Source of the DNA: Myxococcales bacterium
GTDB taxonomy: Bacteria > Myxococcota_A > Polyangia > Fen-1088
Reading direction: 5' to 3'
Assembly: GCA_003153015.1 (NCBI GenBank)
Contig: PMBS01000254.1
Span: 9,568 to 73,567, forward strand
Length of the DNA: 64,000 bases
The translations under genes were made by a program, and so were the position numbers. Below are positions 20,237-63,022 of the stretch, piece after piece; the first letter of the stretch is position 1, and each line of letters begins with the position of its first letter. The notes under the pieces were generated by a model. The model was not told the DNA's origin. It searched no databases and saw nothing but the letters and a program-made list of their open reading frames with translations.

Positions 20237-20280
20237 GGCAAGACCTCACGACTGGGCAGCAAGTGGCAGAGCAATGTCCG

Positions 20281-20700
20281 CTACTCGCCTCCCACCTGCA
20301 TGACGTTGATTGCGAACTTTGTGACACCGGCGACTTTGGCGAGATCCATGACGTGAACCACCTGGCCGTGGGCCGCCTCTTTGTCAGCGCTGATGACCAC
20401 GCTGATTTCCGGATCGGCCGCCACCACCTCCTTCATGTGGCCTCCCAATTCTTGTTCGGTGACCGGCTGTTCGTTCCAGCGCAGCTCTCCATTCTTGAAC
20501 AACTGCACGGTGTTGGGCTTTTCCGCGGTGCCGTCGCTCATCTTTGCCCTGGGCAGGCTGACCTTCAGGGTCTGCGCCACGATGTATGTCGACGCCACCA
20601 TCAGGATGACCAACAACACCAGGCATACATCGACCAGCGGGGTCACATTGATGGCGGAAATCGTCTTGGCCCGCCCCACACCTGCCATCGTGCCAGCCAT
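20281..20700 (-). CDS. exbD: biopolymer transport protein ExbD/TolR
   Basis: 139 aa with single TM (INVTPLVDVCLVLLVILMV) and ExbD periplasmic domain. Confidence 0.8.
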   Translation of the reverse strand: MAGTMAGVGRAKTISAINVTPLVDVCLVLLVILMVASTYIVAQTLKVSLPRAKMSDGTAEKPNTVQLFKNGELRWNEQPVTEQELGGHMKEVVAADPEISVVISADKEAAHGQVVHVMDLAKVAGVTKFAINVMQVGGE

Positions 20701-21437: not shown

Positions 21438-21453
21438 GGGTCACCTTTCCTTT

Positions 21454-24056: not shown

Positions 24057-24385
24057 TGATCCACAGTCAGGCCGGTGCAGATGTCGACTGTAGGCCCGCC
24101 GTCGTTGGGAGTGACGGCGGGAACGTCCGTCCCGGTGACCATGTCAGAAGCGCCGTCTGGCGGGCTGATGGAGGGGCCGTCCACGCTCGCATCCGCCACA
24201 GCGCCACCCATTCCACCCGCGGCATCAATGCCAGCTCCACCGGAGCCAGAAACGCCGCCCGTGGCGATCGCACCGCCGCTGCCGATGCTCGCGACGTCTG
24301 TGTTATTGGTGCTGCTGCAAGCAACCCAGCCGGCCAGTACCAGTACCAGTGCCAGTGCCAGTGTAGAAGTCTTATAGAGATTCAT
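23954..24385 (-). CDS. small Gly/Ala-rich lipoprotein
   Basis: Signal peptide with lipobox (LAGWVAC); same position as the 88-aa lipoprotein 48073..48336 in cassette B. Confidence 0.5.
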   Translation of the reverse strand: MNLYKTSTLALALVLVLAGWVACSSTNNTDVASIGSGGAIATGGVSGSGGAGIDAAGGMGGAVADASVDGPSISPPDGASDMVTGTDVPAVTPNDGGPTVDICTGLTVDQCHVAIINAPVPSTVSALDPGPNPPIAYPSCSAM

Positions 24386-27052: not shown

Positions 27053-27080
27053 CGTGACTTGCCTGTCACATAGTTGTAAC
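27053..27080. promoter_or_regulatory. candidate Pho box (cGTGACttgc CTGTCACatag TTGTAACgaat)
   Basis: Half-sites CTGTCAC and TTGTAAC spaced exactly 11 bp, 70-90 bp upstream of the SBBP lipoprotein gene at 27152; closely resembles the element upstream of pstS (61848). Confidence 0.5.
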
Positions 27081-40576: not shown

Positions 40577-40594
40577 ATGTGACAGGAGTGTCAC
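40577..40594. promoter_or_regulatory. ATGTGACagga GTGTCAC - 11-bp phased half-sites (also an inverted repeat)
   Basis: Lies ~280 bp upstream of the PstS-like gene at 40871. A second element, CGTCAGTTATCCGTTGCG at 40720-40742, resembles (as reverse complement) the element at 46662-46698 upstream of the cassette-B PstS-like gene. Confidence 0.35.
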
Positions 40595-40870
40595 CCTTCC
40601 TTTGCAAAGAGTTAACAAATCGAGGTCATCGACGTCGATGACGCTAGCAACTGAAAGCTGCGACTTCCGTCGGTGCGTTCGCTCTGGGTTGTGCGGGGCA
40701 GCGAGGGATTTCGCAAGAGCGTCAGTTATCCGTTGCGAATGGTTGGCAAAGCCCTCACACACATCCCGCTTGCAAGCTGCTATTCAGTGTGCCGCCGGAA
40801 TAGGGGAAGCGGCCAAGGGGGTGCGCGACCAAGCCGGCGCGGAAAACGAACGATTCAAGGAGGCAGCAAA

Positions 40871-42948: not shown

Positions 42949-45900
42949 ATGGCTACTAAGCGAATGACATGGATGGCAGCCGCGCTCGGCGCGGTCGCCC
43001 TGAGTGGCATGGTGAGCTGTAACGGTAAGGGTGGTAAGGAAGCGGGCGCGGCGGCGGTCGGCGTGAGCGGCCAGGCATTGACCCTCGGCGACGTCAAGTC
43101 GGTCAGCGTTACCGTCACGGGCGGGATCGCCAACCCGCTGACTGTTCCCCTCGTCGGGAATTCGAACGTTCCCCCCACGCAATACTCCGCATTGATCAGC
43201 GACCTGCCCATCGGCTGCAACTACGTCTTCACCGCCACGGCCACGAACACCGCCGGCGCCACAATCTATCAGGGCGTCGCGAGCGGCCAGTGCATCACGA
43301 AGAACCAGACCGCGAACATCATCATCGACATGAACGACACGACGACGCACGTAACCGTGGATGACGAGGCCCCGTTCATCGACTCGATCACGGACACAGC
43401 CGCCTGTGTCGCGGTCGGCGACACCGTCACCATCAAGGCCACCGCCCACGATAGCGATCCCGGCGACACGGCTGGCATGACGTTCGTGTGGAGCGTTCCG
43501 AGCTGCGGTACCCTCAGCACGCCGGTCAACACGGTCGGCACCGACACCACCCCAGGCACTTCGACGGTTGTCTTCACGGCGGTCACCAACAACGTCAACT
43601 GCCAGGTCAACCTGGTGGTGAAGGACGCGCGGATGCCCACGACTTTGCAGACCACCGCGGTGGTCGCAATCTCGATCGGCGACGCTTGCGCGTACGGCAA
43701 TGCCAAGATCACGGCCATCCCGGACACCTGCCCGGCCATCACCGGCCTGACCTCCAGCGCATCGCCCTTGGTCACCGGTGTTCCCACGACCCTGACGGTG
43801 ACCGCCTCGGACTCGGATGGCGACGCCCTCAGCTATCACTGGACCTCTGACTGCAATCCCACCAACGGCCTCGGTCACTTCCTTGGCGCCAACCCTGCTT
43901 CTGCCACTGGAAATCCAGTGCAATTCGTCTACGACAGCGCCCTCAGCGGACCGGACTGCATCTTCACCGTGACCGTGGACGACGGCACGTGGACGAGCGG
44001 ACAGTTGCAAGGCCAAACCAAGTGCTCGGTCATCACCCACATGAGCCTGCCGGCACAGTCGACCGGGTACCATCAGGCGGACGCCTGCACGTTCGGCTAC
44101 GACTACATGTCGACGAATACCGTAGGCGATGGCGACCAGGTGACGATCGAGATCGCCGCCCCATGCTCGAACCCGGTTTGGTCGGCTGGAACGCCGATTC
44201 CGGCTGGGAACCTCACCGCGCCCTTCACCACTGGCGTCACCTTCATCGCCCCAACCGGCGCGGGTGCTAACGGCGCTACCGTGACCGTGACCTGCCCGGA
44301 CTGCGGGGGAGGCACGCTGCACACCTTCACCATGATCGGGGTGAACTCCTTCTGCACTCAACCTGGCGTCAGCGAAGGCGCGGACTGCACCTTGACGGCT
44401 CAGCTCAGCGACAAGTGCATCCTGACGGCTGCGTGCCACGCTGGGCAGTGCCAGCAGACGAGCTACCATGCTCCATGCGGGCCAAGCGGCGTCGCGTGCC
44501 AGGATTACGTGTGCCAGAAGACCACCGGTCAGTGCGCCAACCAGCCCTCGGCCGACGGCACTGATTGCACCGACGGCCTCGCCTGCGACGGAACCGCCGA
44601 CAAGTGCGCTGGCGGCGCCTGCCACCCGACGGGAACCCCGGTGTCCTGCCCCGCGACCGGCAATCCCTGCATGGTTAACGCCTGCACCGAGCCGAACGGC
44701 TCGTGCGTGGCCGCCGCCGCGCCTAGCGGCACGGCCTGCGACGACGGCAACGCCTGCACCGGCACGGTCGTAACCGCGCCGAGCGGGACCACCCCCGGGA
44801 CCTCTGCTGACTTCTGCAACGCCAACGGCGTGTGCGTCGGCTCGGGTGCGACTGTTGCCTGCCCGTCGGGCGACGTCTGCACGGCGGTTAGCGGCAGCGA
44901 CACCCAGTACACCTGCCCGGTCAAGGTCTGCATGGGCCCGGCCAACGCGGTCTCCGTCAGCACCCCTCTGATGTTCGGCATGGGCGTCGCTCCCGATGCT
45001 ACGCTTTGGACCACGGGCTCGTTCGCCAACTTCTCCACCAACCCGATCAACTTCGGCGCTGGCCCCGTCTATTCCTCTGGTGGCTCGGACGTCTACCTCA
45101 ACAAGGTGTCTGCGACCGGGCTGACTGCAAGCCAGACCTTCACCTTTGGCTACCAGGGCGGCGGCGACCAGGTCGGGACCGGTGTGGCGGTTGCCTCCAC
45201 CAACAACGTTGGCCTCATCGGGAACTACTACACCGAGGTCGACTTCGACCCGATCAGGTCTGGCGACCCAGCCTACAACGGCGGCGGCGGCCCGATTGAC
45301 AACTTCGACTTCCTTGCGAAGTCCTCGTTGGTCCAAGCCGCGGCCATGAACTTCGTCCTGGTCGCCAGTGGTGCGTCAACCATGCCGGAAATCACGCCCC
45401 TCAAGGCCCACAACATCGATGTGGGCACGGGCGCGATCGTGGCCGTCGCATCCAACCCCAGCCAGAACAAGATCGCGATCTGTGGCAAGAGCATGAGGCT
45501 TGTCGGCGCCTACAACGCGGCCACTACCAACACTGGATTGCTCACCGCTGGCAACTATGGCACGGGCGGCAGCGGCACCACCGCCGCCGTCGCCGGCGGC
45601 AGCATGGACATCGTGGTAGCCGTGATCGACGCGAGCAACGACCCGAACAACGTCGGCAAGGTCCTCTGGGGCAGGCAGTTTGGTGGCGCAGGCGACCAGG
45701 CCTGTGAGTCCGTGGCCATGGACAGCGCCGGCAACGTGGCCATTGCCGGTAACTACAATGGAGTCTTGAACTTCCACCCGACGAATACTGCTCTCCAACT
45801 CACCAAGTCTGGTGGGAGCACCAGCGGCGCTCTCGCGCTTCCGTTCGTGGCCGTTCTGGACCCCAACGGGACGCCAGTGCAGGCCATGGACTGGGGCACC

Positions 45901-46467
45901 AGTGGCGCGTCGGATGTCAATGGCATAGCGTTTGATAGCAGCGGCAATGTCGTCATCGGGGGAGCCCTCGGTGCCACCATCGCCATGCCCAAAGCCGACG
46001 CCACCTTGATCACGGTTACCGACCTGGGCAAGACCGACGGCTTCGTGGCCAAGCTGAACCCCAACCTGTCTGCGCAGTGGGCGATGTCGTTCGGCGACGC
46101 CAGCTACGCCCAGGCGGTCAAGTCGTTGGCCCTATCGTCGAGCGGCGACGTATTCATCGGTGGGAATTTCGAGGGCACGCTCAACGGGCTGAACGGCCTG
46201 GTTTCAAACGGCAATGCCACGCTCGACGCGTTCAGCGCCGAGCTCTCTGGAACTGACGGCTCGGTGCTGTGCGCGCAAGAGTATGGCGATACTCAAGGGA
46301 CGCAATCGGTCAACTTCGTCACCGTGGCGAATGCCGCGACCGGGTCCTTGGCCAACAACGTGGTGTACGGTGGCAGCTACTCGAACACGATCACCTTCGG
46401 GACGTTCACCCTCAACACGGGAAGCGCCGGTACGGGCTGGAACTTCCTCGCTCGCCTGATTCCGTAG
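42949..46467 (+). CDS. giant lipoprotein: PKD/Ig-like repeats + Cys-rich module + SBBP beta-propeller repeats
   Basis: RBS AAGGAGGA; lipobox GMVSC; N-terminal repeats like those in 35979/36812/55295; Cys-rich module like 27152; C-terminal ~430 aa near-duplicate of the 31299 gene. Confidence 0.7.
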   Translation: MATKRMTWMAAALGAVALSGMVSCNGKGGKEAGAAAVGVSGQALTLGDVKSVSVTVTGGIANPLTVPLVGNSNVPPTQYSALISDLPIGCNYVFTATATNTAGATIYQGVASGQCITKNQTANIIIDMNDTTTHVTVDDEAPFIDSITDTAACVAVGDTVTIKATAHDSDPGDTAGMTFVWSVPSCGTLSTPVNTVGTDTTPGTSTVVFTAVTNNVNCQVNLVVKDARMPTTLQTTAVVAISIGDACAYGNAKITAIPDTCPAITGLTSSASPLVTGVPTTLTVTASDSDGDALSYHWTSDCNPTNGLGHFLGANPASATGNPVQFVYDSALSGPDCIFTVTVDDGTWTSGQLQGQTKCSVITHMSLPAQSTGYHQADACTFGYDYMSTNTVGDGDQVTIEIAAPCSNPVWSAGTPIPAGNLTAPFTTGVTFIAPTGAGANGATVTVTCPDCGGGTLHTFTMIGVNSFCTQPGVSEGADCTLTAQLSDKCILTAACHAGQCQQTSYHAPCGPSGVACQDYVCQKTTGQCANQPSADGTDCTDGLACDGTADKCAGGACHPTGTPVSCPATGNPCMVNACTEPNGSCVAAAAPSGTACDDGNACTGTVVTAPSGTTPGTSADFCNANGVCVGSGATVACPSGDVCTAVSGSDTQYTCPVKVCMGPANAVSVSTPLMFGMGVAPDATLWTTGSFANFSTNPINFGAGPVYSSGGSDVYLNKVSATGLTASQTFTFGYQGGGDQVGTGVAVASTNNVGLIGNYYTEVDFDPIRSGDPAYNGGGGPIDNFDFLAKSSLVQAAAMNFVLVASGASTMPEITPLKAHNIDVGTGAIVAVASNPSQNKIAICGKSMRLVGAYNAATTNTGLLTAGNYGTGGSGTTAAVAGGSMDIVVAVIDASNDPNNVGKVLWGRQFGGAGDQACESVAMDSAGNVAIAGNYNGVLNFHPTNTALQLTKSGGSTSGALALPFVAVLDPNGTPVQAMDWGTSGASDVNGIAFDSSGNVVIGGALGATIAMPKADATLITVTDLGKTDGFVAKLNPNLSAQWAMSFGDASYAQAVKSLALSSSGDVFIGGNFEGTLNGLNGLVSNGNATLDAFSAELSGTDGSVLCAQEYGDTQGTQSVNFVTVANAATGSLANNVVYGGSYSNTITFGTFTLNTGSAGTGWNFLARLIP

Positions 46468-46507
46468 TGGGTAGATTGGAAGGTTAGCCGGGAAAGGCCG
46501 GCTGGTT

Positions 46508-46540
46508 GAAGGGGCGTCCAGAAATGGGCGCCCCTTTTTC
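46508..46540 (+). terminator. rho-independent terminator (GAAGGGGCG..loop..CGCCCCTTTTTC)
   Basis: GC stem followed by T5 immediately after the 42949..46467 gene. Confidence 0.7.
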
Positions 46541-46780
46541 TATATGCGGGCACAAGCGCAAGGACTCGGTGTCCAAAGAGGGGGGCGGCGAAACGCCGGG
46601 GCGCGTGGTCAGCAGGGACAGACCGGGACGACTCCTCGACGGAAAAGCGACTCGACAGGAATTGTCACGCAACGGAATAGTGACGGAAAAGCGACAAGAG
46701 CGCGCACATAACCATTTCTGTTGACCCCACGATTTGCCGATTGCTATAGGCACTCCATCCTCGAACCACGCGGAGGCCCG

Positions 46781-48046
46781 ATGAATCGCCCGAAAAGCTC
46801 TCGTATTGTCGGATTCTGCGTACTTGCCGCCCTGGCCGGCTCGTCTCGCTTGGCCCGGGCTCAGGGTGTTGACTGTCCGACTACGGCGGATACAGTCTAC
46901 ATGGCCGGCACGACCGCGGTCATCCCGGTCATCCGCCTCATGGGTGCAAGGCTGAAAAAGGTCGGCGTAACCCTGCTCTGGAACGAGAACAGCGAGGGTT
47001 GCGGCTCGGTCTACACGCTTACGAGGGCGACGAGTGCAGGTCAAAGGAGCGTGTTCACGCAGTACACCGAGGACCCCAATCAACCGGGCAAGGTCTATCC
47101 CACCAACTGCAACGGAGCTCTTGGCAAGATGCCGGATCTCGTGATCAACGACGTCGCGTGGACGAGTTGTGCGGCAGCGTACTCCGCCAATCCGTCGGCA
47201 CCTCCCCCTCCGCTACCAACGGGTTTCGCCGAGTTCCCGGGGCCGGTGCAGGGATTGGTGCCCATCGTCGCCATGGGCTTCATCCAATACAACGACATCA
47301 CGGTTGAGGAGCTGGCGGACCTGTACATCTGCCTTTCCAAGGGAAACATCCTGACTTTCACGTCCGACCAATTCATCTATGACTACAATTCCGTGACTAG
47401 TGGGATGCGCGAGTTGTTCGCCCGGGGGCTCGGGTTGCCCAATGCTTCTCCGTTGGTGACGGGCGCCGGCAGCACAATTAGCGCTGAGTCCATGGTGACG
47501 GGCTGCGTTTCGCCCGCGACCTCACCGGACCAAACCATCGGCTACACATCGACGGAGTACTACGACCAGTACCGCGATCGGGTGCGCGCGCTCAAGGTGC
47601 GCGGGGTGAATCAGAAACTCGCCTACTGGCCCGACTCGGACATGGCTGCGACCGACAAGCTCAACATCCGCGAGGGCCGCTATACCCTGCAAGGCCCGCT
47701 CCGATTGGTGGCTGCGGTGGACAGCAAAGGTGTGCCGACCCCCGAGGTGGCAAAACATGTCATCGATTGGTTCCAGGGAAATCCCGTGGATCCAGCCCTG
47801 CAGCTTCCCTTCGACATCAACGAGATCTACGCGCAACGAGGCGTGGTTCCCCAGTGCGCGATGAAGGTGAAAACAGAGGCGGACAAGCCGGTGTTCAGCC
47901 ACTATAGCCCGCTCCAGCCCTGTCATTGCAGCTTCCAGTTCTTGGCCACCGGCAAGACGAGTTGCGCGGCCTGCACGGGCACGGATGCATCGGCTTGCCC
48001 GGACAAGCAAGTGTGCAGCCACGGATACTGCGAGCCAGTCCAGTAG
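46781..48046 (+). CDS. divergent PstS-like substrate-binding protein with Cys-rich C-terminal extension (paralog of 24382..25665)
   Basis: Signal peptide (IVGFCVLAALAGSSRLARAQG); shared motifs VYMAGT, QCAMKVK, C-terminal CHCSF..CAACTGTDASAC..CSHGYC. Confidence 0.6.
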   Translation: MNRPKSSRIVGFCVLAALAGSSRLARAQGVDCPTTADTVYMAGTTAVIPVIRLMGARLKKVGVTLLWNENSEGCGSVYTLTRATSAGQRSVFTQYTEDPNQPGKVYPTNCNGALGKMPDLVINDVAWTSCAAAYSANPSAPPPPLPTGFAEFPGPVQGLVPIVAMGFIQYNDITVEELADLYICLSKGNILTFTSDQFIYDYNSVTSGMRELFARGLGLPNASPLVTGAGSTISAESMVTGCVSPATSPDQTIGYTSTEYYDQYRDRVRALKVRGVNQKLAYWPDSDMAATDKLNIREGRYTLQGPLRLVAAVDSKGVPTPEVAKHVIDWFQGNPVDPALQLPFDINEIYAQRGVVPQCAMKVKTEADKPVFSHYSPLQPCHCSFQFLATGKTSCAACTGTDASACPDKQVCSHGYCEPVQ

Positions 48047-48072
48047 GCATGCACGATCAAGAGGAGAAACAG

Positions 48073-48336
48073 ATGCGCGGACAACTGCTACGGGGCCTGT
48101 TCATGGGCCTCTTTCTGGCCGGGTGTGGTTCGGGAAACCCCGGACCCCAGGTGGATGGGCCACCACCACCACCACCACCGGACGCGCCGTCCGTGATTCT
48201 CGACAACCCTGACGCCGGTTGCGACGAGGACGCAGTGGGCGAGGACTACTTCATCAAGAATTGTACTCCGGGCGGAGGCGGGACACAGGTGTTGCGCCAG
48301 AATCCGGTTCCCTACCAGACCTGCAAGACGCTTTGA
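48073..48336 (+). CDS. small lipoprotein (Pro-rich)
   Basis: RBS GAGGAG; lipobox FLAGC; its stop overlaps the porin start (TGATG). Confidence 0.55.
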   Translation: MRGQLLRGLFMGLFLAGCGSGNPGPQVDGPPPPPPPDAPSVILDNPDAGCDEDAVGEDYFIKNCTPGGGGTQVLRQNPVPYQTCKTL

Positions 48337-49919
48337 TGGGCATGTTGTTCATGAAGTTGGGGCAGGACTCTTGCCCGCGGAAATGCCTAGGTACCGCGGT
48401 CTTCCTGGTGGGCCTGGCCGTCACAAGCTGGGCAAGCCCGGTTTCCGCGCAGGTTGGTGCAAGGAAGCCGAAAGAGCCCGCGCCTGATCCGATGGCCGAG
48501 ATAGAGAAGGTCAAGGCGGAATTCGAGCAACGCCTTGCCGACGGGGAGGCTGCGGCCAAGGCGCGCGAGGAAGCCATCCGCAAGGAACAGGCGGCTGCGG
48601 TCGAGGCCGCACGGGATGAGGCGGACAAGCGCGTGACCGCGGATCGCAACGAGCGCCAGGCCGAAGTCCTGCGCCTGCAAAAGGCACTGGATGAGGCGGC
48701 CGCGCGCGAGGATGCGCGCGAGCGCAACGCGCCGCCTGCGGTGAAGGCGGGCATGGCCGGTGTATCGCTCTACAGCTATGTGCAGGCCGACTATCAAGTG
48801 CGCCAATCGTCTGAGGATCAGCTTGACCCCGGAAGTGGCCAGCCGCTCAACCAGGACCGGTTTTTCATCCGGCGTGCCCGCCTGGGTGTGACCCTGGATC
48901 GGCGATTCGGCGAGGGTCGGCTGGAGATCGACGGCAACACGGTCAACGGACCTCAGTTGCGGCTGTTCGACGTGGAAGCCTCGGCGAAATGGCCAGGCCG
49001 GGGCGATGGCGCCCCGCCCGTGGCCATGGGAACCATTGGATTGTTCAGGATTCCGTTCGGGCGCGAGGTGCCGCAAGATGACCGCCGGCGCTTCTTCATG
49101 GAACGCAGCACGGCGGCCCGAGCACTGTTCCCGGGCGAGGCCGACCTGGGCGCCAGGGTGGGTGGTGGGTGGCGCTTTGTCCGGTATGTCCTGGCGGTGA
49201 TGAACGGTCAGCCACTGGGCAGCAGCGCGTTTGCCGGGCTGGATCCCAATCATCAGAAAGATCTGGTTGGGCGTCTGGGGGTCGAGGACTCGCGGGGTCG
49301 GATCGATTTTGCGGGCGGGGTATCCGGGCTGCGCGGCACGGGATTCCACCCGGGAACGACCGCGACCAAACCGACGCTGCAATGGAATGATTCGAACGAC
49401 GACGGTATCGTCAACGTTGGCGCAGGGGAGGTGAACGGAGTTCCCGGCGTGGCAGCGGGGACGTCGTCCAACTACACCCGTTTCGCATTCGGGGCGGATC
49501 TGGCCCTGTCGCTGCGTTTGCCGCACCAACTGAAGACGAGTCTGGAGGCGGAGTTCTTTCTGGCCAACGATCTGGATCGCGGAGTGTCTCCCGCCGATCC
49601 ACAGGGAACCTTGGGCCGAAGCATGCGCGAGCTCGGCTACTACCTGGCCTTGATCCAGGAATTCGGGCGCTGGCGGCTGGGTGTCCGATACGACTACTAC
49701 AACCCTGATCAAGACTCGAACAAGATAGCCAAGGGCAACCCTGTCCCCACCGACGTGACCTACTCCACTTTGGCCGTGGCCGCGGCCTGCGTGGCGCCCT
49801 GGGGCAGGTTGATTGTCGAGTACGACCGCAACCAGAACCATCTGGGCATCAACACATCAGGCATGCCTGCCAATCTGGGCGACAACGCCCTGCTCATTCG
49901 TGGCGAGGTGAGTTTCTGA
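48336..49919 (+). CDS. outer-membrane beta-barrel porin-like protein with N-terminal coiled-coil (possibly phosphate-selective porin O/P family)
   Basis: Signal peptide; coiled-coil region; beta-strand-rich body ending IRGEVSF; paralog of 22374..24056 (shared FVQADLNVRQTSEDQL / YVQADYQVRQSSEDQL). Confidence 0.6.
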   Translation: MGMLFMKLGQDSCPRKCLGTAVFLVGLAVTSWASPVSAQVGARKPKEPAPDPMAEIEKVKAEFEQRLADGEAAAKAREEAIRKEQAAAVEAARDEADKRVTADRNERQAEVLRLQKALDEAAAREDARERNAPPAVKAGMAGVSLYSYVQADYQVRQSSEDQLDPGSGQPLNQDRFFIRRARLGVTLDRRFGEGRLEIDGNTVNGPQLRLFDVEASAKWPGRGDGAPPVAMGTIGLFRIPFGREVPQDDRRRFFMERSTAARALFPGEADLGARVGGGWRFVRYVLAVMNGQPLGSSAFAGLDPNHQKDLVGRLGVEDSRGRIDFAGGVSGLRGTGFHPGTTATKPTLQWNDSNDDGIVNVGAGEVNGVPGVAAGTSSNYTRFAFGADLALSLRLPHQLKTSLEAEFFLANDLDRGVSPADPQGTLGRSMRELGYYLALIQEFGRWRLGVRYDYYNPDQDSNKIAKGNPVPTDVTYSTLAVAAACVAPWGRLIVEYDRNQNHLGINTSGMPANLGDNALLIRGEVSF

Positions 49920-50860
49920 TGAGGAGCGTAATCAGCGGTCTGCTGGCGGTCTGGTCTCTGTGCGCTTTGTCGGCACCCGCTTGTCAGTGGTCTTCGGACT
50001 CGTTTTCGGGTTTGACCTCGGTGATACGGGTGCAAGGCGGCCAGGCGATGCGTGGTTCCATTGCAGGGCCAACCGATACCATCTCGGCCCAAGCGACTCT
50101 GTCACCCCGGGACTACACGATCTTTCCCGGTGAGAGCAACAAGTCGATCAAGGGGACGGTTGAGGCTGACGCCCACGCGGTTGCGCTGGGCGTGGCCGGG
50201 GACGATGCCTATTGGCTGGTGCCAGCCCTGAGCCCGGACAATCCATTGGATCCGCAGTACTTCAACTTCACCGCCAGCCTCTCGTTGTCGCCCGCGCTGG
50301 CAAGTAGCCCGCTGCTGCAGGACAACCAAGATGGCACGTGGACGCTTCCCCTGTCCTATCGTGCGGTTGACGATGCGGGGAACTTCGGGTCGGCGAGGGT
50401 TCAGCCGCTGATTATGGACGCGCTGGGGCCCAAGGGCGCATTGGTCGTGTCTCTCGACTGGGACGCGCCAGTCGATCTGGATCTGCACGTGCAGACCCCG
50501 ATCCCCGCCAATAATAGGGCGGGTTTCGTCATTGTCTGGGCCAAGCAGCGCAGCGCGGAACCCAACCTCCCGGATGGCGGCGTGGATGGCAACCTGGATT
50601 TCGATTCCAACGAGGATTGCCAGATCGATGGGCGCGATCGCGAGAACGTGGTGTGGACAGGGCAGCCGCCCTCCGGCCACTACATCGTGCGGGTGGATGC
50701 CTTTTCATTGTGCGGGCAGGTGTCGGCCGCCTGGCACGCCCTTGCCTACTCCCCGCAGGGAACCGTGGGCGAGGCCTCGGGCGTGCTCACCGATGCCTCC
50801 ACCCGCGAGGCTCCGACCGCGGGCGCCGGCCTGACCGCCTTCGAGTTCGACTACCCGTAG
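49919..50860 (+). CDS. lipoprotein of unknown function (paralog of 21454..22374)
   Basis: ATG overlaps the porin TGA; signal peptide. Confidence 0.6.
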   Translation: MRSVISGLLAVWSLCALSAPACQWSSDSFSGLTSVIRVQGGQAMRGSIAGPTDTISAQATLSPRDYTIFPGESNKSIKGTVEADAHAVALGVAGDDAYWLVPALSPDNPLDPQYFNFTASLSLSPALASSPLLQDNQDGTWTLPLSYRAVDDAGNFGSARVQPLIMDALGPKGALVVSLDWDAPVDLDLHVQTPIPANNRAGFVIVWAKQRSAEPNLPDGGVDGNLDFDSNEDCQIDGRDRENVVWTGQPPSGHYIVRVDAFSLCGQVSAAWHALAYSPQGTVGEASGVLTDASTREAPTAGAGLTAFEFDYP

Positions 50861-50871
50861 GTTCCGCAAGC

Positions 50872-53535
50872 ATGCGTCTTCTCGCAGTTGCCGCCACCTG
50901 GTTTCTTGCGGCAGGGATTTCCCTGGCAGCGCGGGGCGAGTCTCCGCCGGGCGAGGCGGGGGAGCCCGGCAAGGGCTTGCATCCGCCCAAGCTGCTGAAG
51001 TTCGTCGAAGCGGTCTACCCTGAAGACAAGCGCGCCGTCGGCGCAGGCGCCAAGGTGGTGCTGTCCATCGAGGTGGAGGACAGCGGACGGGTGGGAAACG
51101 TGGAGGTGGTGGTACCCGCCGGTCCCGATTTCGACGCGGCGGCAGTGGCCGCGGCCCGGCAGTTCGAGTTCGAGCCCGCCACGCTGGACGGAACGCCGGT
51201 GCCGGTGAAAATCCAGTACGCGTACAAGTTCGTGGTCAAGGAAGTGCTGGTGCCGGTAGGCCTGCAGGTCAACCTGGAAGGCGTGGTCCTGGATCGGTTC
51301 AGCAAGGCTCCCTCACGCGGGGTGAAGGTCAGAATCGTGGATTTGGGGGTCGACGCGTCCACCGACCAGGATGGTGCTTTTGCCTTCACCGACGTGCCAC
51401 CGGGCCCGCACGTGATCGAGCTGTCATCGCGCGAGCTGGTGACCATCAAGACAGAAGAGGTCATCACCAAAGGCAAGAAGAAGTCGGTCAAGTACATGGT
51501 CGAGGCCAAAGAAGCCGACGTGGACGAAGAAGCAGTGGTACGCGCGCCGCGTATCAAGAAGGAAGTGGTTGAGACACGGGTGCGCACCGAAGAGGCCAAG
51601 CGCGTCCCCGGCACCCAGGGCGACACGCTCAAGGTGGTGCAGAATTTGCCCGGCGTGGGCCGCTCGGCCTTCGGCTCGGGTGCACTCATCGTGTGGGGAT
51701 CGGCACCGCAGGACACGCGAGTCAACGTCGACGGGGTGGAGATTCCGGTGCTGTACCACGTGGGCGGCATGCGTTCGACCATCAACGCGGATCTAGTGCG
51801 TTCCATCGACCTGTCGCCCGGCTCGTTCGGGGCCGACTACGGCCGTGGCCTGGGCGGGTTGGTGCGCATCGACCTGCTGGACCCCGGGCACGAGGGCGTG
51901 CACGGCTACCTGGCCGCGGATGTGATGGACGTCTCCGGCATGGTCAGGGCCGCCATCACGCCCAATCTTCGGGTGGCCGTGTCTGGCCGCCAGGGCTATC
52001 TCGACCAAACCCTCAAGGCGGCGGTGTCCAAGGACGTGGGCGATTTCTTCCCCATTCCTCGCTACGACGACTATCAAGCGCGGGTCTCGGCCACCCTGGG
52101 CAAGGACGAGGAACTCTCCGCGACCTTCCTGGCTTCCGACGATCACCTGACCCGTACCGTTCCTTCATCGGATCCATTGGAATACAAGAAACAGGACCAG
52201 AATCTGCTCTACCGGCGCTTCATGGTGCGCTACACGCGCCTGTTTGCGGACGGTTCCAGCATTGCCGTCACGCCATCCTTGGGCTACGACCAGAACCAGC
52301 AGCAGTGGAGTTTCGGCGGCACCCCCCTCCTGCTCGACACCACCACCTGGCAGTACGCGCTGCGCGCCTCGTACCGACGGCGGGTCACGGGCAAGATCAT
52401 TCTTTCCACGGGCCTGGATTTCCAGGGGCGCAGCAGCACCTCTGACCGGGTTGGGTCCCTGGAGTTGCCGGCCCGCGAGGGTGACGTCACCGTCTTCGGC
52501 CAGTCGCCGGGGACCGATCTTGCGTCCGATCGCTGGAAGGTCAATCTGCTGTCAGCCGCGGCCTACGTCTTCGCGGAGATCAATATCGGCCGCCTGACTC
52601 TGACCCCGGGATTCCGGTTCGAGCCCACGGTGATCGATGGTAGCCTGCGGCTGCCCCACAGCTATCAGGCGCCGGACATCGGGTACCGGCGAATGGATCT
52701 AGCCCGGAATCCTTCATTCGGACCACTGAGCTGGATGCCCAATCCAAGACTGTCGGCTGCCTACCGGGCCACCCACAAGCTGACCTTCACGGCAGGCGCC
52801 GGCATCTACGGCCAGCCACCTACGGTCGAGGATCTGAGTCCGGTCTTCGGCAATCCGAATCTGTCAAGCTCGTCCGCGATTCACGCCAGTGGAGGCGGTT
52901 CTTACAAGCTGACGGGAACCCTGGTCTTCGAGGTCGTGGGATTCTACAAGCGTCTTTACGACCTGGTGGCGCGCAGCGGATTGCCGTCGCCGCCAGTGGG
53001 CCAGTCCCTGCAGCAGACTGGCATCGGCCACAGCTATGGCGGGCAGGCGCTATTGCGGCAGGAGCTGGCCAAGGGGTTCTTCGGCTGGTTCACCTATTCG
53101 CTCATCCGCAGCGAGCGCAAGGATCGACCGACGAGCAACTGGCGCCTGTTTGACTACGACCAGACCCATGTACTCGCGCTGCTGGCCAGCTACGAGATCA
53201 CCCGCGGTTTTCTGGCCGGCGCGCGCTTTCGCTACACCACGGGCGCGCCGCGAACGCTGGTCGTAGGAGCCTACTTCAATGCTACGTCTCAGCAGTACGA
53301 GCCCATCTTCGGGGCGCAGAACTCGATTCGCCTTCCCGGATTCTACTCGCTCGACGTTCGGCTGGAGAAGGCCTTCGTGCTTCGGCGTCTCAAGTTCAAC
53401 GTCTTCGCCGACGTGCAGAATGTGACCAATCGGAAGAACCCCGAGGAAATCATCTACAGTGCCGACTACAGCCAGCGCAGCTACATCACGGGGTTGCCGG
53501 TTCTGGCGGTGGTTGGCATGCGAATGGAGTTCTGA
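50872..53535 (+). CDS. TonB-dependent receptor-like outer-membrane protein with N-terminal TonB-C-like domain (paralog of 16850..19501)
   Basis: Signal peptide; TonB_C-like region; plug motif GTQGDTLKVVQNLPGVGR identical to paralog; C-terminal F. Confidence 0.8.
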   Translation: MRLLAVAATWFLAAGISLAARGESPPGEAGEPGKGLHPPKLLKFVEAVYPEDKRAVGAGAKVVLSIEVEDSGRVGNVEVVVPAGPDFDAAAVAAARQFEFEPATLDGTPVPVKIQYAYKFVVKEVLVPVGLQVNLEGVVLDRFSKAPSRGVKVRIVDLGVDASTDQDGAFAFTDVPPGPHVIELSSRELVTIKTEEVITKGKKKSVKYMVEAKEADVDEEAVVRAPRIKKEVVETRVRTEEAKRVPGTQGDTLKVVQNLPGVGRSAFGSGALIVWGSAPQDTRVNVDGVEIPVLYHVGGMRSTINADLVRSIDLSPGSFGADYGRGLGGLVRIDLLDPGHEGVHGYLAADVMDVSGMVRAAITPNLRVAVSGRQGYLDQTLKAAVSKDVGDFFPIPRYDDYQARVSATLGKDEELSATFLASDDHLTRTVPSSDPLEYKKQDQNLLYRRFMVRYTRLFADGSSIAVTPSLGYDQNQQQWSFGGTPLLLDTTTWQYALRASYRRRVTGKIILSTGLDFQGRSSTSDRVGSLELPAREGDVTVFGQSPGTDLASDRWKVNLLSAAAYVFAEINIGRLTLTPGFRFEPTVIDGSLRLPHSYQAPDIGYRRMDLARNPSFGPLSWMPNPRLSAAYRATHKLTFTAGAGIYGQPPTVEDLSPVFGNPNLSSSSAIHASGGGSYKLTGTLVFEVVGFYKRLYDLVARSGLPSPPVGQSLQQTGIGHSYGGQALLRQELAKGFFGWFTYSLIRSERKDRPTSNWRLFDYDQTHVLALLASYEITRGFLAGARFRYTTGAPRTLVVGAYFNATSQQYEPIFGAQNSIRLPGFYSLDVRLEKAFVLRRLKFNVFADVQNVTNRKNPEEIIYSADYSQRSYITGLPVLAVVGMRMEF

Positions 53536-54557
53536 TGAAACGGGCAAACATCGGAGCCATGGTTCTGTTGGTTCTGCTTGCTGCCTGCAAGCCGCAGGTG
53601 GGGCCGCCCATTTCTCTGATCAGCGGGCCCGCGATCCTGGCTGTGAAAGGCGAGCCTGCTGAGGTCGATCCCAAGGCCGCGGATCCGACCGTCCACTACG
53701 AGGCGTTGGCCGTGGACATGGGCGGTCGCGTCCCCGCGCCCAACGCTGACATAACCTCACCTCTGCTCTGGTCCATCTGCAACAGGCCCAAGCCACCGAC
53801 CGAGAGCAACTCGGTGAGTGCCGCCTGCCTGGACGAAAATGCCTTGCCCGGCACAGCCGGGGACTCGCCCGATACCTACTCTGCACCCGCCCCGTTAGAC
53901 TCGTGCACCCTGTTTGGTCCGCAGATACCGCAATCCCCAGAGGGCCAGCCACCCATCCGGCCGCGGGATCCCGACGTCACCGGTGGGTACTACTTGCCGG
54001 TGCGGGTGAGTCTGTCAGTTCCGGAGGAATTGCGTCGCGCGGGGATGGCCACCGAAGATTCCGTGATCGGCTTCCAGCTACAGCGCATCTACTGCGGCCT
54101 AGCCAATGCGCCGGGCCAGTATGTATACCAGTACGGCAAGGACTACACGCCCAACCAAAACCCGGTGATTGCCTCGCTAACCCTGCAGCAGCCCGGTGCT
54201 GATCCGGTCGAGGTTCCTCCGATTTCGGCCGGAGGCGCGGCGTTCCCGGTTGCGGCTGGGCAGACGGTCTCGTTGACGGTTAGCTGGCCTGCCGAGTCGG
54301 TGGAAAACTACCCCGCCTGGGATGTACTCACTCGCACACTTCCCAATCACTACGAAGCCATGCGGGTTTCTTGGTACGCGACGGCGGGGTCATTTGAACA
54401 CGACATCACCGGGCGCAGCGAATCAGAATTTGAAACCCTCTTCGCCGAGAATACTTGGACGCCCGGCGCTCCGGGGCCGGTTCACCTGTGGGTGGTGCTA
54501 CACGACAGCCGTGGCGGAACGGATTTCGCCGGCTACGATCTCGACGTCACGCCCTGA
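53535..54557 (+). CDS. lipoprotein of unknown function (paralog of 15902..16849)
   Basis: ATG overlaps the receptor TGA; lipobox LLAAC. Confidence 0.65.
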   Translation: MKRANIGAMVLLVLLAACKPQVGPPISLISGPAILAVKGEPAEVDPKAADPTVHYEALAVDMGGRVPAPNADITSPLLWSICNRPKPPTESNSVSAACLDENALPGTAGDSPDTYSAPAPLDSCTLFGPQIPQSPEGQPPIRPRDPDVTGGYYLPVRVSLSVPEELRRAGMATEDSVIGFQLQRIYCGLANAPGQYVYQYGKDYTPNQNPVIASLTLQQPGADPVEVPPISAGGAAFPVAAGQTVSLTVSWPAESVENYPAWDVLTRTLPNHYEAMRVSWYATAGSFEHDITGRSESEFETLFAENTWTPGAPGPVHLWVVLHDSRGGTDFAGYDLDVTP

Positions 54558-54712
54558 GGTCGTCGATCGCCGCGGACGGGATTTGCTAGACCCTGCCAAG
54601 TGAACGAATTGTGACAACTCAGGGCCTGAAGGCGTAACACAAGCGTAACAGACGCGAACCGCTAAACAGGGATTATCCACGCGCGGCACAGGAGAATGCC
54701 GGCCTGAGACTC

Positions 54713-55075
54713 GTGCATCCCATTGACCATTTCTGGCTGAGAGCGTTGGCGCTAGGTGCGGCTGCGGTGGCAACATCTGTGAGCTGCGCCAGGCCGACAC
54801 CGAATGACACGGGAGCGGCGAACGTCACGGTACAGGCCGTGCGGACCAGCGATGTAACTTCGGTGATTGTCACGGTGGCGGGTTCGGTGCTGCCGGTGCC
54901 GCTGGCGATTCCCCTAGTCCATTCCGGCAACCAGTTCTACGGGCTGGCAGGCGACCTCCCGGTGGGCGCCGGCTACACCTTCACAGCCTCGGCCATCGAC
55001 GGCTCCACGCCGCCGGTCGTTTCCCTGTTGTTGCCCGGCGAGGATTCGAACCCGCATACCATGCGGGGGCGGTGA
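54713..55075 (+). pseudogene. truncated N-terminal fragment paralogous to the start of the 55295 lipoprotein gene
   Basis: 120-aa ORF with signal/lipobox-like N-terminus and a PKD/Ig-like module similar (~35% identity) to the N-termini of 55295 and 42949. Reading frame terminates inside a tRNA-like sequence. Confidence 0.45.
55033..55067 (-). other. tRNA-like fragment (minus strand ...CCCGC-atGGTat-GCGGGTTCGAATCC...)
   Basis: Contains canonical T-loop sequence GGTTCGAATCC and a perfect 5-bp stem / 7-nt loop with GGT at the anticodon position. No D-arm or acceptor pairing is found, so not a complete tRNA. Confidence 0.35.
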
Positions 55076-55294
55076 CTCTCCCTAGTCTGACGTCGCTGGC
55101 CACGTCGAGCGCCGCAGATTAACGCCCACGACCTGAGACAGTCCTCGCTGCGCGGCAACCCCACGACACCCAGTTGTCGCAATTGTCACAACTTGGCCGC
55201 TAGCGTTTTCTCTTTCTTTGCGTAGTCGTCGCGTGCGGGGCGCGGATGGAGGCATAGGCTGCGCCCGGTTCGCTATTTCCACCGGAGGATTACC

Positions 55295-58192
55295 ATGTTG
55301 CAACTTCGCTCTCATCGTTCCGCCTTGTTGCCCCTCGGGGCGCTCGCCATCGCCGCGGCGCTCTCGGCGTGTGGCCAGGACAACCAACCCTCGGTCAGCA
55401 CGGGGTCAGCCGAGGTGAGCGTCCAACCGCTCAGCTCCGTGCCGCTCGGCCAGGTCACCGTCACGATCACCGGTCCTGCTCTGCCCAACCCGAAACCCGT
55501 GATTCTCTCCGCCCAGGGTTCGGGTGGCAGCTACGGCGCCCTGATTTCTTCGCTGCCGGTTGGCAGCAACTACACGTTCACGGTCAGTGCCACCGATACC
55601 AGCGACGTCGTCGCATACGTCGGACAAGCTACCAACGTAGCCATTCTGCACAATCACGTGACCACGGTTGTGATCACCGCCCAACCCGTCCAACCGCCTG
55701 CTCCCTTCGTGAACACGGTCCCGGTCATCGATTCTCTTGTCGTGTCATCTACCAACATCGCTCCGGGCGAAACCATCACCGCCAAGGTCACGGCCCATGA
55801 TGACCAGCCCAGCGACACCATCACCTTTGCCTGGTCGGCCAACCCCGCCAGCGGCAGCTTCTCCGCCCCCACCGCAACCACCACCGCCTGGACCGCGCCT
55901 TCCACCGAGGGTGACGTGACGCTTGCCATTCAGGTGCAGGATGATCACGGCGCCACCACATCCGCCTCCATCGTGATTCACGTATCCAACTCCAATGGCA
56001 AGGGTCAGGCCGACGTCAATGTCACGTTCAACAACTGGCCCGTAGTGACGGATGTCCTTGCCACGCCCGGCTGGATTGCCCTCGGCGCACCCGTATCCCT
56101 GTCGGTGACGGCCAGCGATTCGGATGGCGACACGCTCAGCTACCTGTGGAGCACCGGCACTACCTGCACCTCGGGCAGCTTCACCAACGCCACCTCCGCC
56201 ACCACCATGTTCATTCTGCCGGCCTCCGCCCCGGACGGGTACTGCGAATTCGACGTCGCGGTAAGCGATGGGCACGGCGGATCCGCCCACGGCACGATGT
56301 ATCTCCCGGTGGGAGCGCCTGCTTCCATCATCGCTCCGGCCATCGTCGACGCTGCGCAATCAGCCTCGGTCGTTGATCCGTCCAGCACGGTTCTGTTCTC
56401 GGTAGAGGCGATGGACCCGCAGGCCAGCACCATGACCTTCGTGTGGTCGACAACGGGGGGCACGCTCTCCGGACAGTCCGACACCGGCACCACCTCGCAG
56501 GTGACCCTGACCGCGCCTGCCACCGCGTCCAGCGATGTGGTGGTTTCCGTGGTGGTGACCGACGCGGTGGGCGCCAGCAAGCAGTACGACTTCTCCGCGC
56601 ACACCGCGGCCGTAACCACGGCCTGCACGCCGCCTGCTTCGACGGCATGGAAATTCGGAATGATGTCGGATACGCAGTGGACGACTGCGGATCCAGCGGG
56701 TCAGAACCCGACCACCGTGTCGGTGTCGATCATCAATCAGCTCAACCCGATCTTCATCCAGGCGGGCGTCAAGTTCGTCATCCAGGTGGGTGACCTCGCC
56801 GACACCGGCAACGACGCCGACGAGATCGTGCGCGCCCAGGCCGCTCAGCCGCTCTACGACGCTGGCATCGGCTTCTACCCGATGCGCGGTAACCACGAAA
56901 CCTACGGCACGGCCAATAGCTTCGCCATCCCGGTGTTCCAGACGAGCTACCCGCAGACGCGTGGCCTGAGCAACACCTTCGGCGCCACGAACTTCAGCAG
57001 CCCGACTTCGCTCAGCACCGAGCTCGACGGCATGACCTACTCGTTCGACTACAACAACGCCCGCTTCGTGATCCTCGATACCTGGGCCACGCCGAGCATC
57101 GATATCTCCGCGGCGGGATACTCCTACGGCTACTCGGTCGCGCAGCAGCAACCGTGGATCAACAGCCGGCTCGACAAGACCACGCGCGGCACCGACCATG
57201 CCTTCGTGTTGTCCCACCAGCCGCTCATGGCGGAGAGCCACCAGGACACCATGTTCCAGGGCTACACCAACGCCAACCCGGACATGCAGAACGCCTTCTA
57301 CGCCAGCCTGCAGAGCAACAACGTCAAGTACTTCCTGGCCGGCCACGACCACATGAACCAGCATTCGATCATGGCGAGCCCCGATGGACTGTCGAGCGTG
57401 CACGAGATCATCGGCGCCTCGGACAGCAGCAAGTTCTACACGCCATCGGCCGTCTCGGGCGCGAACTGGTTCGGGCAGAAGGTGCGCGAGACCCCTGTGG
57501 CGCAAGAGCTGTACACGGTCGGCTACTACATCTTCACGGTGGATGGGCCGAACGTGACGGTGGACTTCTACTCCGACAGCCACGGCAACTGGAAGTCGGA
57601 CGCCAGCTATCCGATGGGTGCCGGAAATGCCAGCTATCCTATCAACATCACTCCGGTCCTCACCTTCGCCAAGAAGCAAACCTTCGGCTACAGCCAGAAC
57701 GGAGCCGAGTTCCTGGTTGCTGAGGGAGCTTCCTATCCCACCACGCCGTTCACCTTCTCCGGCACCACGGCGCAGTTTCTCGCCGGCACCAATACCAGCA
57801 CGGCGATGGATTACATAAGCCGCAAGCTTACCCATGCCGTGGACATCGGTTGGGACGCCGCCACCTGCGCCACCTCGAGCGCCATCCTGTCCTTGTGGGG
57901 CACGACGGATATTGGCAGCAGCAGTGGCGACACGATCGCCCTGTCGATGTCCTTTGACCGCAACAGCGTCAGTGATGCCACGCTGGTCAGTGGCAACTTC
58001 GGCTTGGCCGCCGTGGACAGCGCGGGCAACCTGACCGGCGCGGTCGCGCAGAACGTGGGTGGAGCACCGAACTTCGTGTTCGGCCCCTGGAACGCGCGCT
58101 ACACCCTCGGCACCTACGGCGTCGACCCCGACACCAATACCGTGTGGGCCGTGGTTAATCACGCCGGGCGCTTCGCCGCAGGTCGGTTCTAA
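55295..58192 (+). CDS. lipoprotein with N-terminal PKD/Ig-like repeats and C-terminal calcineurin-like metallophosphoesterase domain
   Basis: Lipobox LSAC; metallophosphoesterase motifs (GDLADTG, GNHE, GHDH) in the C-terminal half. Confidence 0.7.
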   Translation: MLQLRSHRSALLPLGALAIAAALSACGQDNQPSVSTGSAEVSVQPLSSVPLGQVTVTITGPALPNPKPVILSAQGSGGSYGALISSLPVGSNYTFTVSATDTSDVVAYVGQATNVAILHNHVTTVVITAQPVQPPAPFVNTVPVIDSLVVSSTNIAPGETITAKVTAHDDQPSDTITFAWSANPASGSFSAPTATTTAWTAPSTEGDVTLAIQVQDDHGATTSASIVIHVSNSNGKGQADVNVTFNNWPVVTDVLATPGWIALGAPVSLSVTASDSDGDTLSYLWSTGTTCTSGSFTNATSATTMFILPASAPDGYCEFDVAVSDGHGGSAHGTMYLPVGAPASIIAPAIVDAAQSASVVDPSSTVLFSVEAMDPQASTMTFVWSTTGGTLSGQSDTGTTSQVTLTAPATASSDVVVSVVVTDAVGASKQYDFSAHTAAVTTACTPPASTAWKFGMMSDTQWTTADPAGQNPTTVSVSIINQLNPIFIQAGVKFVIQVGDLADTGNDADEIVRAQAAQPLYDAGIGFYPMRGNHETYGTANSFAIPVFQTSYPQTRGLSNTFGATNFSSPTSLSTELDGMTYSFDYNNARFVILDTWATPSIDISAAGYSYGYSVAQQQPWINSRLDKTTRGTDHAFVLSHQPLMAESHQDTMFQGYTNANPDMQNAFYASLQSNNVKYFLAGHDHMNQHSIMASPDGLSSVHEIIGASDSSKFYTPSAVSGANWFGQKVRETPVAQELYTVGYYIFTVDGPNVTVDFYSDSHGNWKSDASYPMGAGNASYPINITPVLTFAKKQTFGYSQNGAEFLVAEGASYPTTPFTFSGTTAQFLAGTNTSTAMDYISRKLTHAVDIGWDAATCATSSAILSLWGTTDIGSSSGDTIALSMSFDRNSVSDATLVSGNFGLAAVDSAGNLTGAVAQNVGGAPNFVFGPWNARYTLGTYGVDPDTNTVWAVVNHAGRFAAGRF
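58106..58192. repeat. direct repeat copy 1 (3' end of phosphoesterase gene)
   Basis: ~85% identical to 59127..59213 including the stop codon. Confidence 0.7.
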
Positions 58193-61954: not shown

Positions 61955-63022
61955 ATGATCAAGCTAGAATCCATAGGACTGCTCGCCGCCGCCTTCGGCT
62001 TGACACTGCTGAGTGGAGGAGCGCTTGCGGGCGAAGCGAGCACCATCTCTGGTGCCGGAGCGACGTTCCCCTACCCGGTCTACTCGAAGTGGGCCGACAC
62101 ATACGCGAAAGAGACGCACATCAAGTTGAACTACCAGGCCATCGGATCGGGCGGCGGTATCAAACAGATCACCGAAGGGACGGTTGATTTCGGTGCTTCC
62201 GATGCGCCGCTGACACCCGAGGATTTGGACAAGGCCGGCCTGATCCAGTTTCCGGTGGTCATGGGTGGGGTGGTTCCGGTGATCAATGTCGCCGGCATCA
62301 AAGCGGGCGAATTGAAGCTGGCGCCGGATGTGCTGGCGGACATTTTCCTGGGCAAGATCAAGAAGTGGAATGACCCACGGCTGGTGCAGAGCAACCCTGG
62401 TCTCAAGCTGCCCGACACGGCGGTGACCGTGGTGCACCGGTCGGACGGCTCCGGTACGACCTGGATCTTCACGAACTATCTGGCCAAGGTCAGCCCCGAA
62501 TGGTCCAAGGCGGTCGGCAGCGACAAATCGGTTGCCTGGCCGACTGGTGTAGGGGGCAAGGGAAACCAGGGCGTAGCCTCATATGTTCAGCGCATCAACG
62601 GCGCCATTGGCTATGTCGAATCGGCCTATGCCATCCAGAATCACATGGCCCACGCCAAGCTCAGGAACCACGACGGCAGGTTCGTCGATCCCACGGATGA
62701 CAGTGTGCAGGCCGCTGCCAAGGGCGCTGACTGGACACACGCTCGCAGCTTCTACATGGTTCTCACCGATCAGGCGGGCGCTGCCTCGTGGCCCATCACG
62801 GGCGCCTCCTTTGTTCTGGTTCACCGCCAACAGAAGGACGCTGATACCGGTCGGGCGGTGCTGCGCTTCTTCGATTGGGGCTACCGCAACGGCGGCGCGG
62901 CGGCAAAGGAGCTCGGCTACATCCCGATGCCGGCGAGCGTGGTGGACCTGGTCGAGAAGACCTGGGAAAAGGATCTGAAGGACGCCGGCGGCCAGAAGCT
63001 CTGGCCGGCCAGCAAGAAGTAG
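61955..63022 (+). CDS. pstS: phosphate ABC transporter substrate-binding protein
   Basis: Signal peptide plus canonical PstS motifs ([42 protein letters not shown]). Confidence 0.9.

Follow-up and report, generated by a model that had tools for sequence, protein, structure and literature searches.

The short open reading frame (ORF) at 54713..55075, on the plus strand of the 64,000-nucleotide stretch of Polyangia DNA analysed here (the window), raises the question of how a lipoprotein gene came to be cut short next to a string that resembles part of a tRNA. The initial annotation had suggested that the two are connected, the tRNA-like string marking an old integration junction at which a paralog was truncated. 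Comparison with related loci leads us to a different reading: the ORF is very likely a pseudogene stump created by a lineage-specific deletion, lying beside a much older orphan tRNA-Gln scar that did not cause the truncation. The features of the site on which this reading is built are as follows, in window coordinates.

54558..54712, plus strand: upstream (promoter/operator) region of the lipoprotein paralog, conserved in relatives, with the near-palindrome AATTGTGACAACT at 54607-54619 and TGTCAC-type repeats
54713..55019, plus strand: codons 1-102 of the lipoprotein paralog, a signal-peptide-like N-terminus with Cys25 and then an incomplete first module
55019..55020, no strand: junction of deletion 1, ~3455 bp in the coordinates of relative L090 (11462 to 14917), with microhomology of at most 1-2 nt
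55020..55071, plus strand: leftover spacer between paralog stop and kinase start, aligned to the spacer of relatives
55028..55052, minus strand: orphan fragment of a tRNA-Gln 3' end, exact over the 21-mer 55032-55052 and 24/25 when the discriminator A and a CCA-like CAA are included
55051..55067, no strand: hairpin CCCGCAT-ACC-ATGCGGG (plus strand), not derived from a tRNA, overlapping the end of the tRNA-like stretch
55072..55103, plus strand: remnant of a hybrid histidine kinase, a GTG start and ~10 codons (VTLPSLTSLAT), aligned to the called kinase starts of L090 (14970) and others
55104..55147, no strand: 44 nt holding the junction of deletion 2, with ~3.9 kb lost
55148..55294, plus strand: upstream DNA native to the 965-aa gene, containing AATTGCGACAACT on the minus strand (55172-55184) and AATTGTCACAACT at 55181-55193
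55295..58192, plus strand: intact 965-aa lipoprotein with PKD/Big_9 and calcineurin-like metallophosphatase parts, carrying the shared N-terminal module

The existence of the ORF was confirmed; it begins with GTG and encodes 120 aa. Residues 8-98 of the product match the N-termini of both the 1172-aa gene at 42949..46467 (44% identity, E 3e-13) and the 965-aa gene (43% identity, E 8e-10), in agreement with the original description of the ORF as a truncated paralog of the starts of these two genes. Over its first 102 residues the product shares 73% identity with the start of the 1243-aa ortholog in L090 (residues 1-102, E 8e-39), and the match stops exactly at residue 102. Only these 102 codons are homologous to anything, and the last 18 codons (VSLLLPGEDSNPHTMRGR, then the stop) are former spacer read out of context. 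The TGA stop (55073-55075) overlaps the GTG called as the kinase start in relatives and lies 5 nt beyond the tRNA-like string (55038-55068) within which the ORF had been said to end. At the other end, a basic and hydrophobic N-terminus runs up to ...ATSVSC at Cys25, a candidate, non-canonical lipobox in a region that aligns with ...GMVSC of the 1172-aa paralog.

The ORF had also been credited with a PKD/Ig-like module. Pfam does not bear this out: the 120-aa product matched no family at E<=0.01, and the PKD/Big_9 matches of the 965-aa protein occur at residues 262-336, outside the module that the proteins share. This shared N-terminal module runs ~25 residues further (...ELYHGSVTNQVIRKNTTANIVIDMNQ) both in P0002, an ORF of contig L007, and in the 1172-aa paralog of the window, so the stump was cut inside its first module. 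Since the module stops ~25 residues short of its end, the 120-aa product most likely has no function, and the ORF would be a pseudogene. The locus has the features of a pseudogene formed by deletion, in that relatives have a full-length ortholog at this position and homology breaks off inside the gene.

The 340-aa protein encoded upstream occurs on numerous metagenome contigs from soil, peat and wood, and its homologues carry the source name 'Polyangia bacterium'; the more distant relatives used for synteny show 74-86% protein identity. Their gene order is 1172-aa gene ... TonB-dependent receptor, 340-aa gene, large paralog, kinase, regulator and 965-aa ortholog. The large paralog measures 1243, 1183 or 1380 aa, apart from two lineages in which it has 561 or 589 aa, the kinase is a hybrid histidine kinase (HisKA, HATPase_c, Response_reg, Hpt), and the regulator is a Response_reg plus HD-GYP (HD_5) protein; in this ancestral order the spacer between paralog and kinase is about 85-140 bp long. 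Blastn of the window against L090 gave three collinear blocks.

Window 53509-55019: L090 9975-11462
Window 55019-55103: L090 14917-15001, 84% identity
Window 55173-57290: L090 18911-21029

The same three-block pattern was obtained against L092, L093 and L100, to all of which the short middle block also aligns, as it does to L118 (93% over 44 nt). Deletion 1 corresponds to the ~3.45 kb gone from the window between paralog codon 103 and ~30 nt beyond the paralog stop (L090 stop at 14887). Deletion 2 took away ~3.9 kb that began at kinase codon 12 and stopped near the end of the HD-GYP regulator gene, leaving an 85-bp island of spacer and kinase start, with the tRNA-Gln fragment inside it, between both gaps. 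The right junction of deletion 2 is placed within the 44 nt at 55104-55147, which may be filler DNA or, given the shared GCCGCAGA, what is left of a diverged regulator tail; L104 17504-17533 matches window 55148-55178 at 94%. These alignments show an ancestral order with a full-length paralog, followed by two deletions in the window's lineage, and the synteny comparison that had been proposed as a check resolves the truncation as a lineage-specific deletion of ~3.45 kb, not an integration boundary. The independent contig L007 also stops matching at window 55019, where its P0002 continues the module. L007 is a foldback contig, probably an assembly artefact; it was used only for ~620 bp past the breakpoint and was rejected as evidence for an inverted duplication.

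Of the paralog, the promoter region, the start codon, the signal sequence and 102 codons are still in place. Translation would enter the old spacer and end at a fortuitous TGA over the former kinase start codon. Illegitimate end joining or slippage during replication is the inferred cause of the deletions, whether they happened in one complex event or in two.

The regions upstream of the stump and of the 965-aa gene also carry short repeats. Blocks GTGAACGAATTGTGACAAC, GCGTAACAGACGCG, GGATTATCC and GGGAGAATGCCGGC of 54558..54712 are common to L090, L092, L093, L094 and L100. Near-identical inverted copies of a motif had been reported at 54627 and 55176; the 13-mers are real, and both the direct and the inverted relationship hold, but they are located at 54607-54619 and 55181-55193, with a third copy on the minus strand at 55172-55184. 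These 13-mers are near-palindromes. Assignment to canonical Pho boxes was tried and set aside on spacing: the motif pair ahead of the ORF fits a TGTCAC repeat of 11 nt, and the period of the pair ahead of the 965-aa gene is 9 nt; any assignment is tentative.

The tRNA-like string is a separate matter, and in this case the original reading was borne out, in that the T-loop-like string on the minus strand is a genuine partial copy of tRNA-Gln, not a gene. The window has a single copy of GGTTCGAATCC (55042-55052, minus strand), and the 21-mer GGTTCGAATCCTCGCCGGGCA (55032-55052, minus strand) is exactly a tRNA-Gln 3' end, comprising the T-loop, the 3' strand of the T-stem and the 3' strand of the acceptor stem. 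A scan of one genome per species (GTDB representatives, 596 Gb) returned 82 stretches matching the 21-mer, compared with a chance expectation estimated at ~0.3 (596 Gb x 2 strands / 4^21). ARAGORN, applied to 60 of the 82 loci, placed nearly all matches at the 3' end of a tRNA-Gln(TTG/CTG) gene. Genes matching the fragment thus exist in other phyla, with hosts that include Dehalococcoidia, Actinomycetota, Planctomycetota, Omnitrophota, Latescibacterota and Gemmatimonadota; no Myxococcota genome is among the 82 matches, and the host genome is outside that collection. Some of the matching genes continue into a discriminator A and CCA, and over 55028-55052 the window (...GGGCA-A-CAA) agrees at 24 of 25 positions.

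On the 5' side of the T-stem GG, no similarity was found between the window and the 82 tRNA-Gln genes. A complete or degenerate tRNA gene at 54950-55150 was rejected on this ground and on two negative searches: ARAGORN called no tRNA or tmRNA gene over the whole 64-kb window, and Rfam gave no tRNA match at the gathering score, nor at E<=10 in 54500-55400. The string is accordingly a remnant, as the check for a complete tRNA gene had been meant to establish. The adjoining hairpin had been likened to an anticodon arm, an interpretation that we discarded: its GCGGG arm occupies the position of the 5' strand of the T-stem, its loop triplet is not that of Gln, and it is absent from tRNA-Gln. Relatives carry CCGCGCAT-ACC-ATGCGCGG at the hairpin position. 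As for its origin, the fragment is most likely either a displaced att-type piece of tDNA or the last remnant of a tRNA-Gln gene.

Relatives also provide an opportunity to date the fragment with respect to the truncation. Every relative that retains the spacer has the homologous stretch at the orthologous position, in states that range from near-exact to erased (L097). There the stretch lies ~40 nt past the native stop of the paralog and ~20 nt before the kinase start, and in L090/L091, L100, L093, L094, L111 and L118 it stands downstream of the stop of a paralog whose 3' end is intact. In L118, specifically, the paralog ORF exceeds 1291 aa and runs to its native stop; 30 nt further on begins a spacer 93% identical to window 55019-55062. 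Scanning metagenomes for a degenerate pattern built on the conserved left portion of the spacer brought in additional lineages, and the forms of the fragment are listed below.

Window: plus-strand TTGCCCGGCGAGGATTCGAACC, exact
L104, L111, L117, L119: plus-strand ...GGATTCGA-CC, one base missing
L118: plus-strand ...GGATTCG--CC, two bases missing
L090, L092, L100, L102, L106, L112: TTTCCCGTCGAGGACTGAACC and variants, 5 differences
L093, L094, L127, L122: further decayed, 6-8 differences
L097: no recognisable fragment, erased

Since these relatives have the fragment alongside a paralog whose 3' end is intact, it predates the truncation; it appears to be older than the clade and is unrelated to the loss of the paralog. 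Since the near-exact form occurs in several separate lineages, the exact tRNA-Gln sequence is likely the ancestral state, from which the other forms would have decayed. A recent 'refreshing' of the exact match in the window's lineage was considered and dropped, the bases in question being shared by L104, L111, L118 and L119. In neighbor-joining (NJ) trees of the flanking genes the window groups with L097 and is nested among lineages with decayed fragments. Strict parsimony on the NJ flanking-gene tree would make some of the tRNA-matching bases in the window derived. Recombination among the lineages that bear the spacer is possible.

The paralog itself has fared variably across the clade. Full-length forms span 1183-1380 aa. 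In L097 the paralog is 561 aa long with its C-terminal part replaced, and in L092 it is 589 aa long; L104 retains a 168-aa C-terminal stump. L102, L103 and L106 have lost it almost wholly, the loss extending in L102 and L103 to the N-terminal half of the kinase, and in L110 and L122 a different, divergently oriented gene set has taken its place. By these gene structures, the same paralog has decayed independently in other lineages.

Against this background, several other accounts of the site can be weighed. The original proposal, in which an element targeting a tRNA 3' end recombined here and a partial-tRNA junction truncated the paralog, is extremely improbable. It draws on a real tRNA-Gln 3' end that is as long as a typical att core, on a deletion junction (55019/55020) only 12 nt outside the 21-mer (8 nt outside the CCA-like tail), on orphan tRNA-Gln 3' fragments in other genomes (L012, L023 and L080), and on the established principle that islands leave a displaced tDNA fragment (PMC4383910). 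However, many relatives hold the fragment at the same site past an intact paralog stop, and the junction falls outside the tRNA-identical block. The hallmarks of an island boundary (PMC4383910), namely a regenerated tRNA together with an integrase and bounded variable DNA, did not turn up either. Pfam detected no integrase or transposase domain in ~40 long ORFs of the window, nearly all that it has, and the precomputed Pfam lists of relatives contain no integrase or transposase. No cognate tRNA partner is present in the 64-kb window, which extends 9 kb on the relevant higher-coordinate side, and no tRNA gene lies within 10 kb at any related locus. Searches for a second copy of the fragment, and hence a direct repeat, were negative in the window at <=3 mismatches and in the Polyangia loci at <=4 edits, the orthologous site excepted. 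No compositional island surrounds the site in the window, whose G+C content is ~63%; the genes on both flanks are chromosomal genes syntenic across relatives; and no presence/absence DNA bounded at the fragment was found, the rearrangement junctions lying scattered 9-27 nt outside it. The locus is best described as a decayed stretch of Polyangia (Myxococcota) chromosome, not an integration junction. A weaker form of the idea, that the tRNA-Gln-like stretch is a recombination hot spot (a pseudo-attB or fragile site) that seeded rearrangements including the deletion in the window, is also very unlikely. Four independent junctions (window, L097, L122 and L110) do fall within ~20 nt of one another (L100 12062-12080), just past the 3' end of the fragment, but they are scattered and outside the tRNA-identical core, unlike the pattern of a site-specific recombinase; no integrase is nearby, and the breaks of L102/L106 and L104 are elsewhere. 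In addition, the L097, L110 and L122 junctions lie just upstream of a strongly conserved block (CGTCACNAATCTGTTGCCCTSTTGTT). Because the kinase is intact in three of the four lineages with clustered junctions, selection keeping the block upstream of the kinase would be a simpler explanation of the clustering than a hot spot.

That block, which makes up the left part of the spacer, shows stronger conservation than the surrounding coding DNA and probably carries signals for the kinase operon. One could suppose that the tRNA-like stretch is itself kept by selection as a cis element of this operon, whether as promoter or operator, as a structured leader RNA, or as a sequence that pairs with the tRNA-Gln 3' end; we regard this as highly improbable. 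The acceptor-side half (TTGTTGCCCG) does lie within the best-conserved block of the spacer, and the sense strand of the operon in the window is perfectly complementary to 21 nt of tRNA-Gln. Yet the T-loop half varies freely between lineages and is erased in L097, and the kinase that the element would serve is deleted in the window. The search for a structured RNA, terminator or promoter in the spacer was equally negative: the folding energy of the window spacer equals that of shuffled controls on both strands (z -0.13 and 0.27), the covariation term from alifold of the spacer alignment is ~0, Rfam gave no match, and no sigma-70-like promoter or terminator consensus was found in the spacer. Taken more broadly, the notion of the antisense tRNA-Gln copy as an element maintained throughout the clade, be it an attachment or fragile site that drives rearrangements or a leader that pairs with tRNA-Gln, seems to us decidedly improbable. 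It is unlikely, too, that the 120-aa ORF is a working small lipoprotein gene and not a dead stump. Its upstream region and start codon are conserved, its putative signal sequence with Cys25 is intact, and gene callers, including those of metagenome annotators, report it as a gene. Nevertheless, the last ~25 residues of the shared module are cut off, the 18 C-terminal residues are translated spacer, and a single cluster of near-identical 120-aa proteins was found among 5.8 billion sequences. Six contigs from the same population are identical to the window over 54558-55294; every available copy of the window's allele has the same DNA sequence, so nothing indicates that the ORF has been maintained through time.

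A pseudogene stump beside an older scar can be set against known systems on both counts. The fragment resembles the displaced tDNA of Islander-type islands (PMC4383910) in being a lone intergenic copy of 21-25 nt that runs from the T-loop to the 3' end of tRNA-Gln, i.e. of the typical length and part. It differs from the islands described there in that the cognate tRNA, an integrase, island-like genes, a compositional shift and bounded polymorphism are all missing from the site. The fragment here is fixed and decaying across the whole clade, and it may at most be the fossil of such an integration. The stump, for its part, behaves like an internal-deletion pseudogene: a full-length ortholog is in place in relatives, homology ends at codon 102, the frame runs into formerly intergenic DNA, and neighboring genes were lost in the same region. 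The sole oddity is the presence of two gaps around a retained piece of 85 bp. With the variable surface lipoproteins, for which the examples are the window's 1172-aa and 965-aa genes and the 1183-1380-aa PKD/RCC1-repeat orthologs of relatives, the stump shares the putative signal sequence with its cysteine and the first module of ~100 residues, but it lacks the K319L-like PKD and RCC1 repeats seen in relatives and the metallophosphatase of the 965-aa gene.

For annotation, the ORF at 54713..55075 should be flagged as a gene remnant and not as a small lipoprotein gene, and the tRNA-like string is unsuited to calling the boundary of a genomic island. The locus is an ordinary case of known processes and leaves current understanding unchallenged. 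It illustrates that a tDNA fragment can outlast every trace of the event from which it originated, and that a large variable lipoprotein and its adjoining two-component genes can be quickly lost or remodelled among close soil Polyangia.

Junctions of rearrangement from four independent lineages all fall inside ~20 nt (the equivalents of 12062-12080 in L100, a related Polyangia metagenome locus), located between the stop of the lipoprotein paralog and the tRNA-Gln-like fragment.

Clustered junctions
Window 55019/55020, within the truncated ORF
L097 ~3218, related Polyangia locus
L122, related Polyangia locus
L110 ~3068, related Polyangia locus

Further evidence for turnover of cyclic-di-GMP-related genes at the locus comes from one relative, L104, in which the HD-GYP regulator is separated from the metallophosphatase ortholog by an additional EAL-GGDEF gene (15660-17492). 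Separately, the window holds a pair of oppositely oriented, paralogous gene clusters, 15902-25665 (minus) and 42949-54557 (plus). Both encode a TonB-dependent receptor, a Porin_O_P-like protein and three further proteins, of 427/441 aa, ~310 aa and 315/340 aa; a cluster-2-like gene set directly adjoins the kinase operon in L110 and L122.

The spacer also carries a hairpin before the kinase start, CCCGCAT...ATGCGGG at window 55051-55067, which reads CCGCGCAT...ATGCGCGG in the orthologous spacer of the relatives L090, L092 and L093, so that both arms have changed with pairing kept. The hairpin is not retained in L094- and L104-type lineages, and the spacer containing it folds overall no better than shuffles.

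Orphan tRNA-Gln 3′ fragments also occur in Dehalococcoidia and Schlesneria genomes, and are candidate att remnants outside Myxococcota. ARAGORN found no tRNA gene on L012 or L023, and the orphan status of L080 was judged by the sequence upstream of the match.

Orphan tRNA-Gln 3′ fragments
L012 ~7023-7043
L023 ~7469-7489
L080 ~207-227

Among metagenome contigs matching the window, L007 (1-15495; ENA ERZ25039473 contig_76373) is a foldback symmetric about ~10750, in which 3568-10130 and 11369-15482 match one window segment twice in opposite orientations; the structure is probably an artefact of long-read assembly.

A search for Pho-box-like direct repeats of the form TGTCAC-N5-TGTCAC (11-nt period, ≤2 mismatches) returned 15 in the window versus 3.65 in shuffles, the majority intergenic and 5′ of genes, including the truncated ORF.

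TGTCAC-N5-TGTCAC repeats
Window 54616, 54650, 10036, 12427, 27053-27070, 40578-40595, 46696, 61849

The 13-mers described in the initial annotation as inverted copies may belong to this motif class, an assignment that is tentative because the period is 9 nt in the pair that precedes the 965-aa gene.

The window carries pstS/pstC-like genes and also encodes Ppx/GppA and polyphosphate kinase, a type I phosphodiesterase, a PhoB-type response regulator, Porin_O_P-like porins, two TonB-dependent receptors and the metallophosphatase lipoprotein.

Example coordinates of the apparent phosphate-scavenging neighbourhood
Window 10138-12375, 12470-14083, 14986-15861, 6988-8892, 22374-24056, 55295-58192, 61955-63022

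Judged by these encoded genes, window 1-64000 looks like a phosphate-scavenging neighbourhood.
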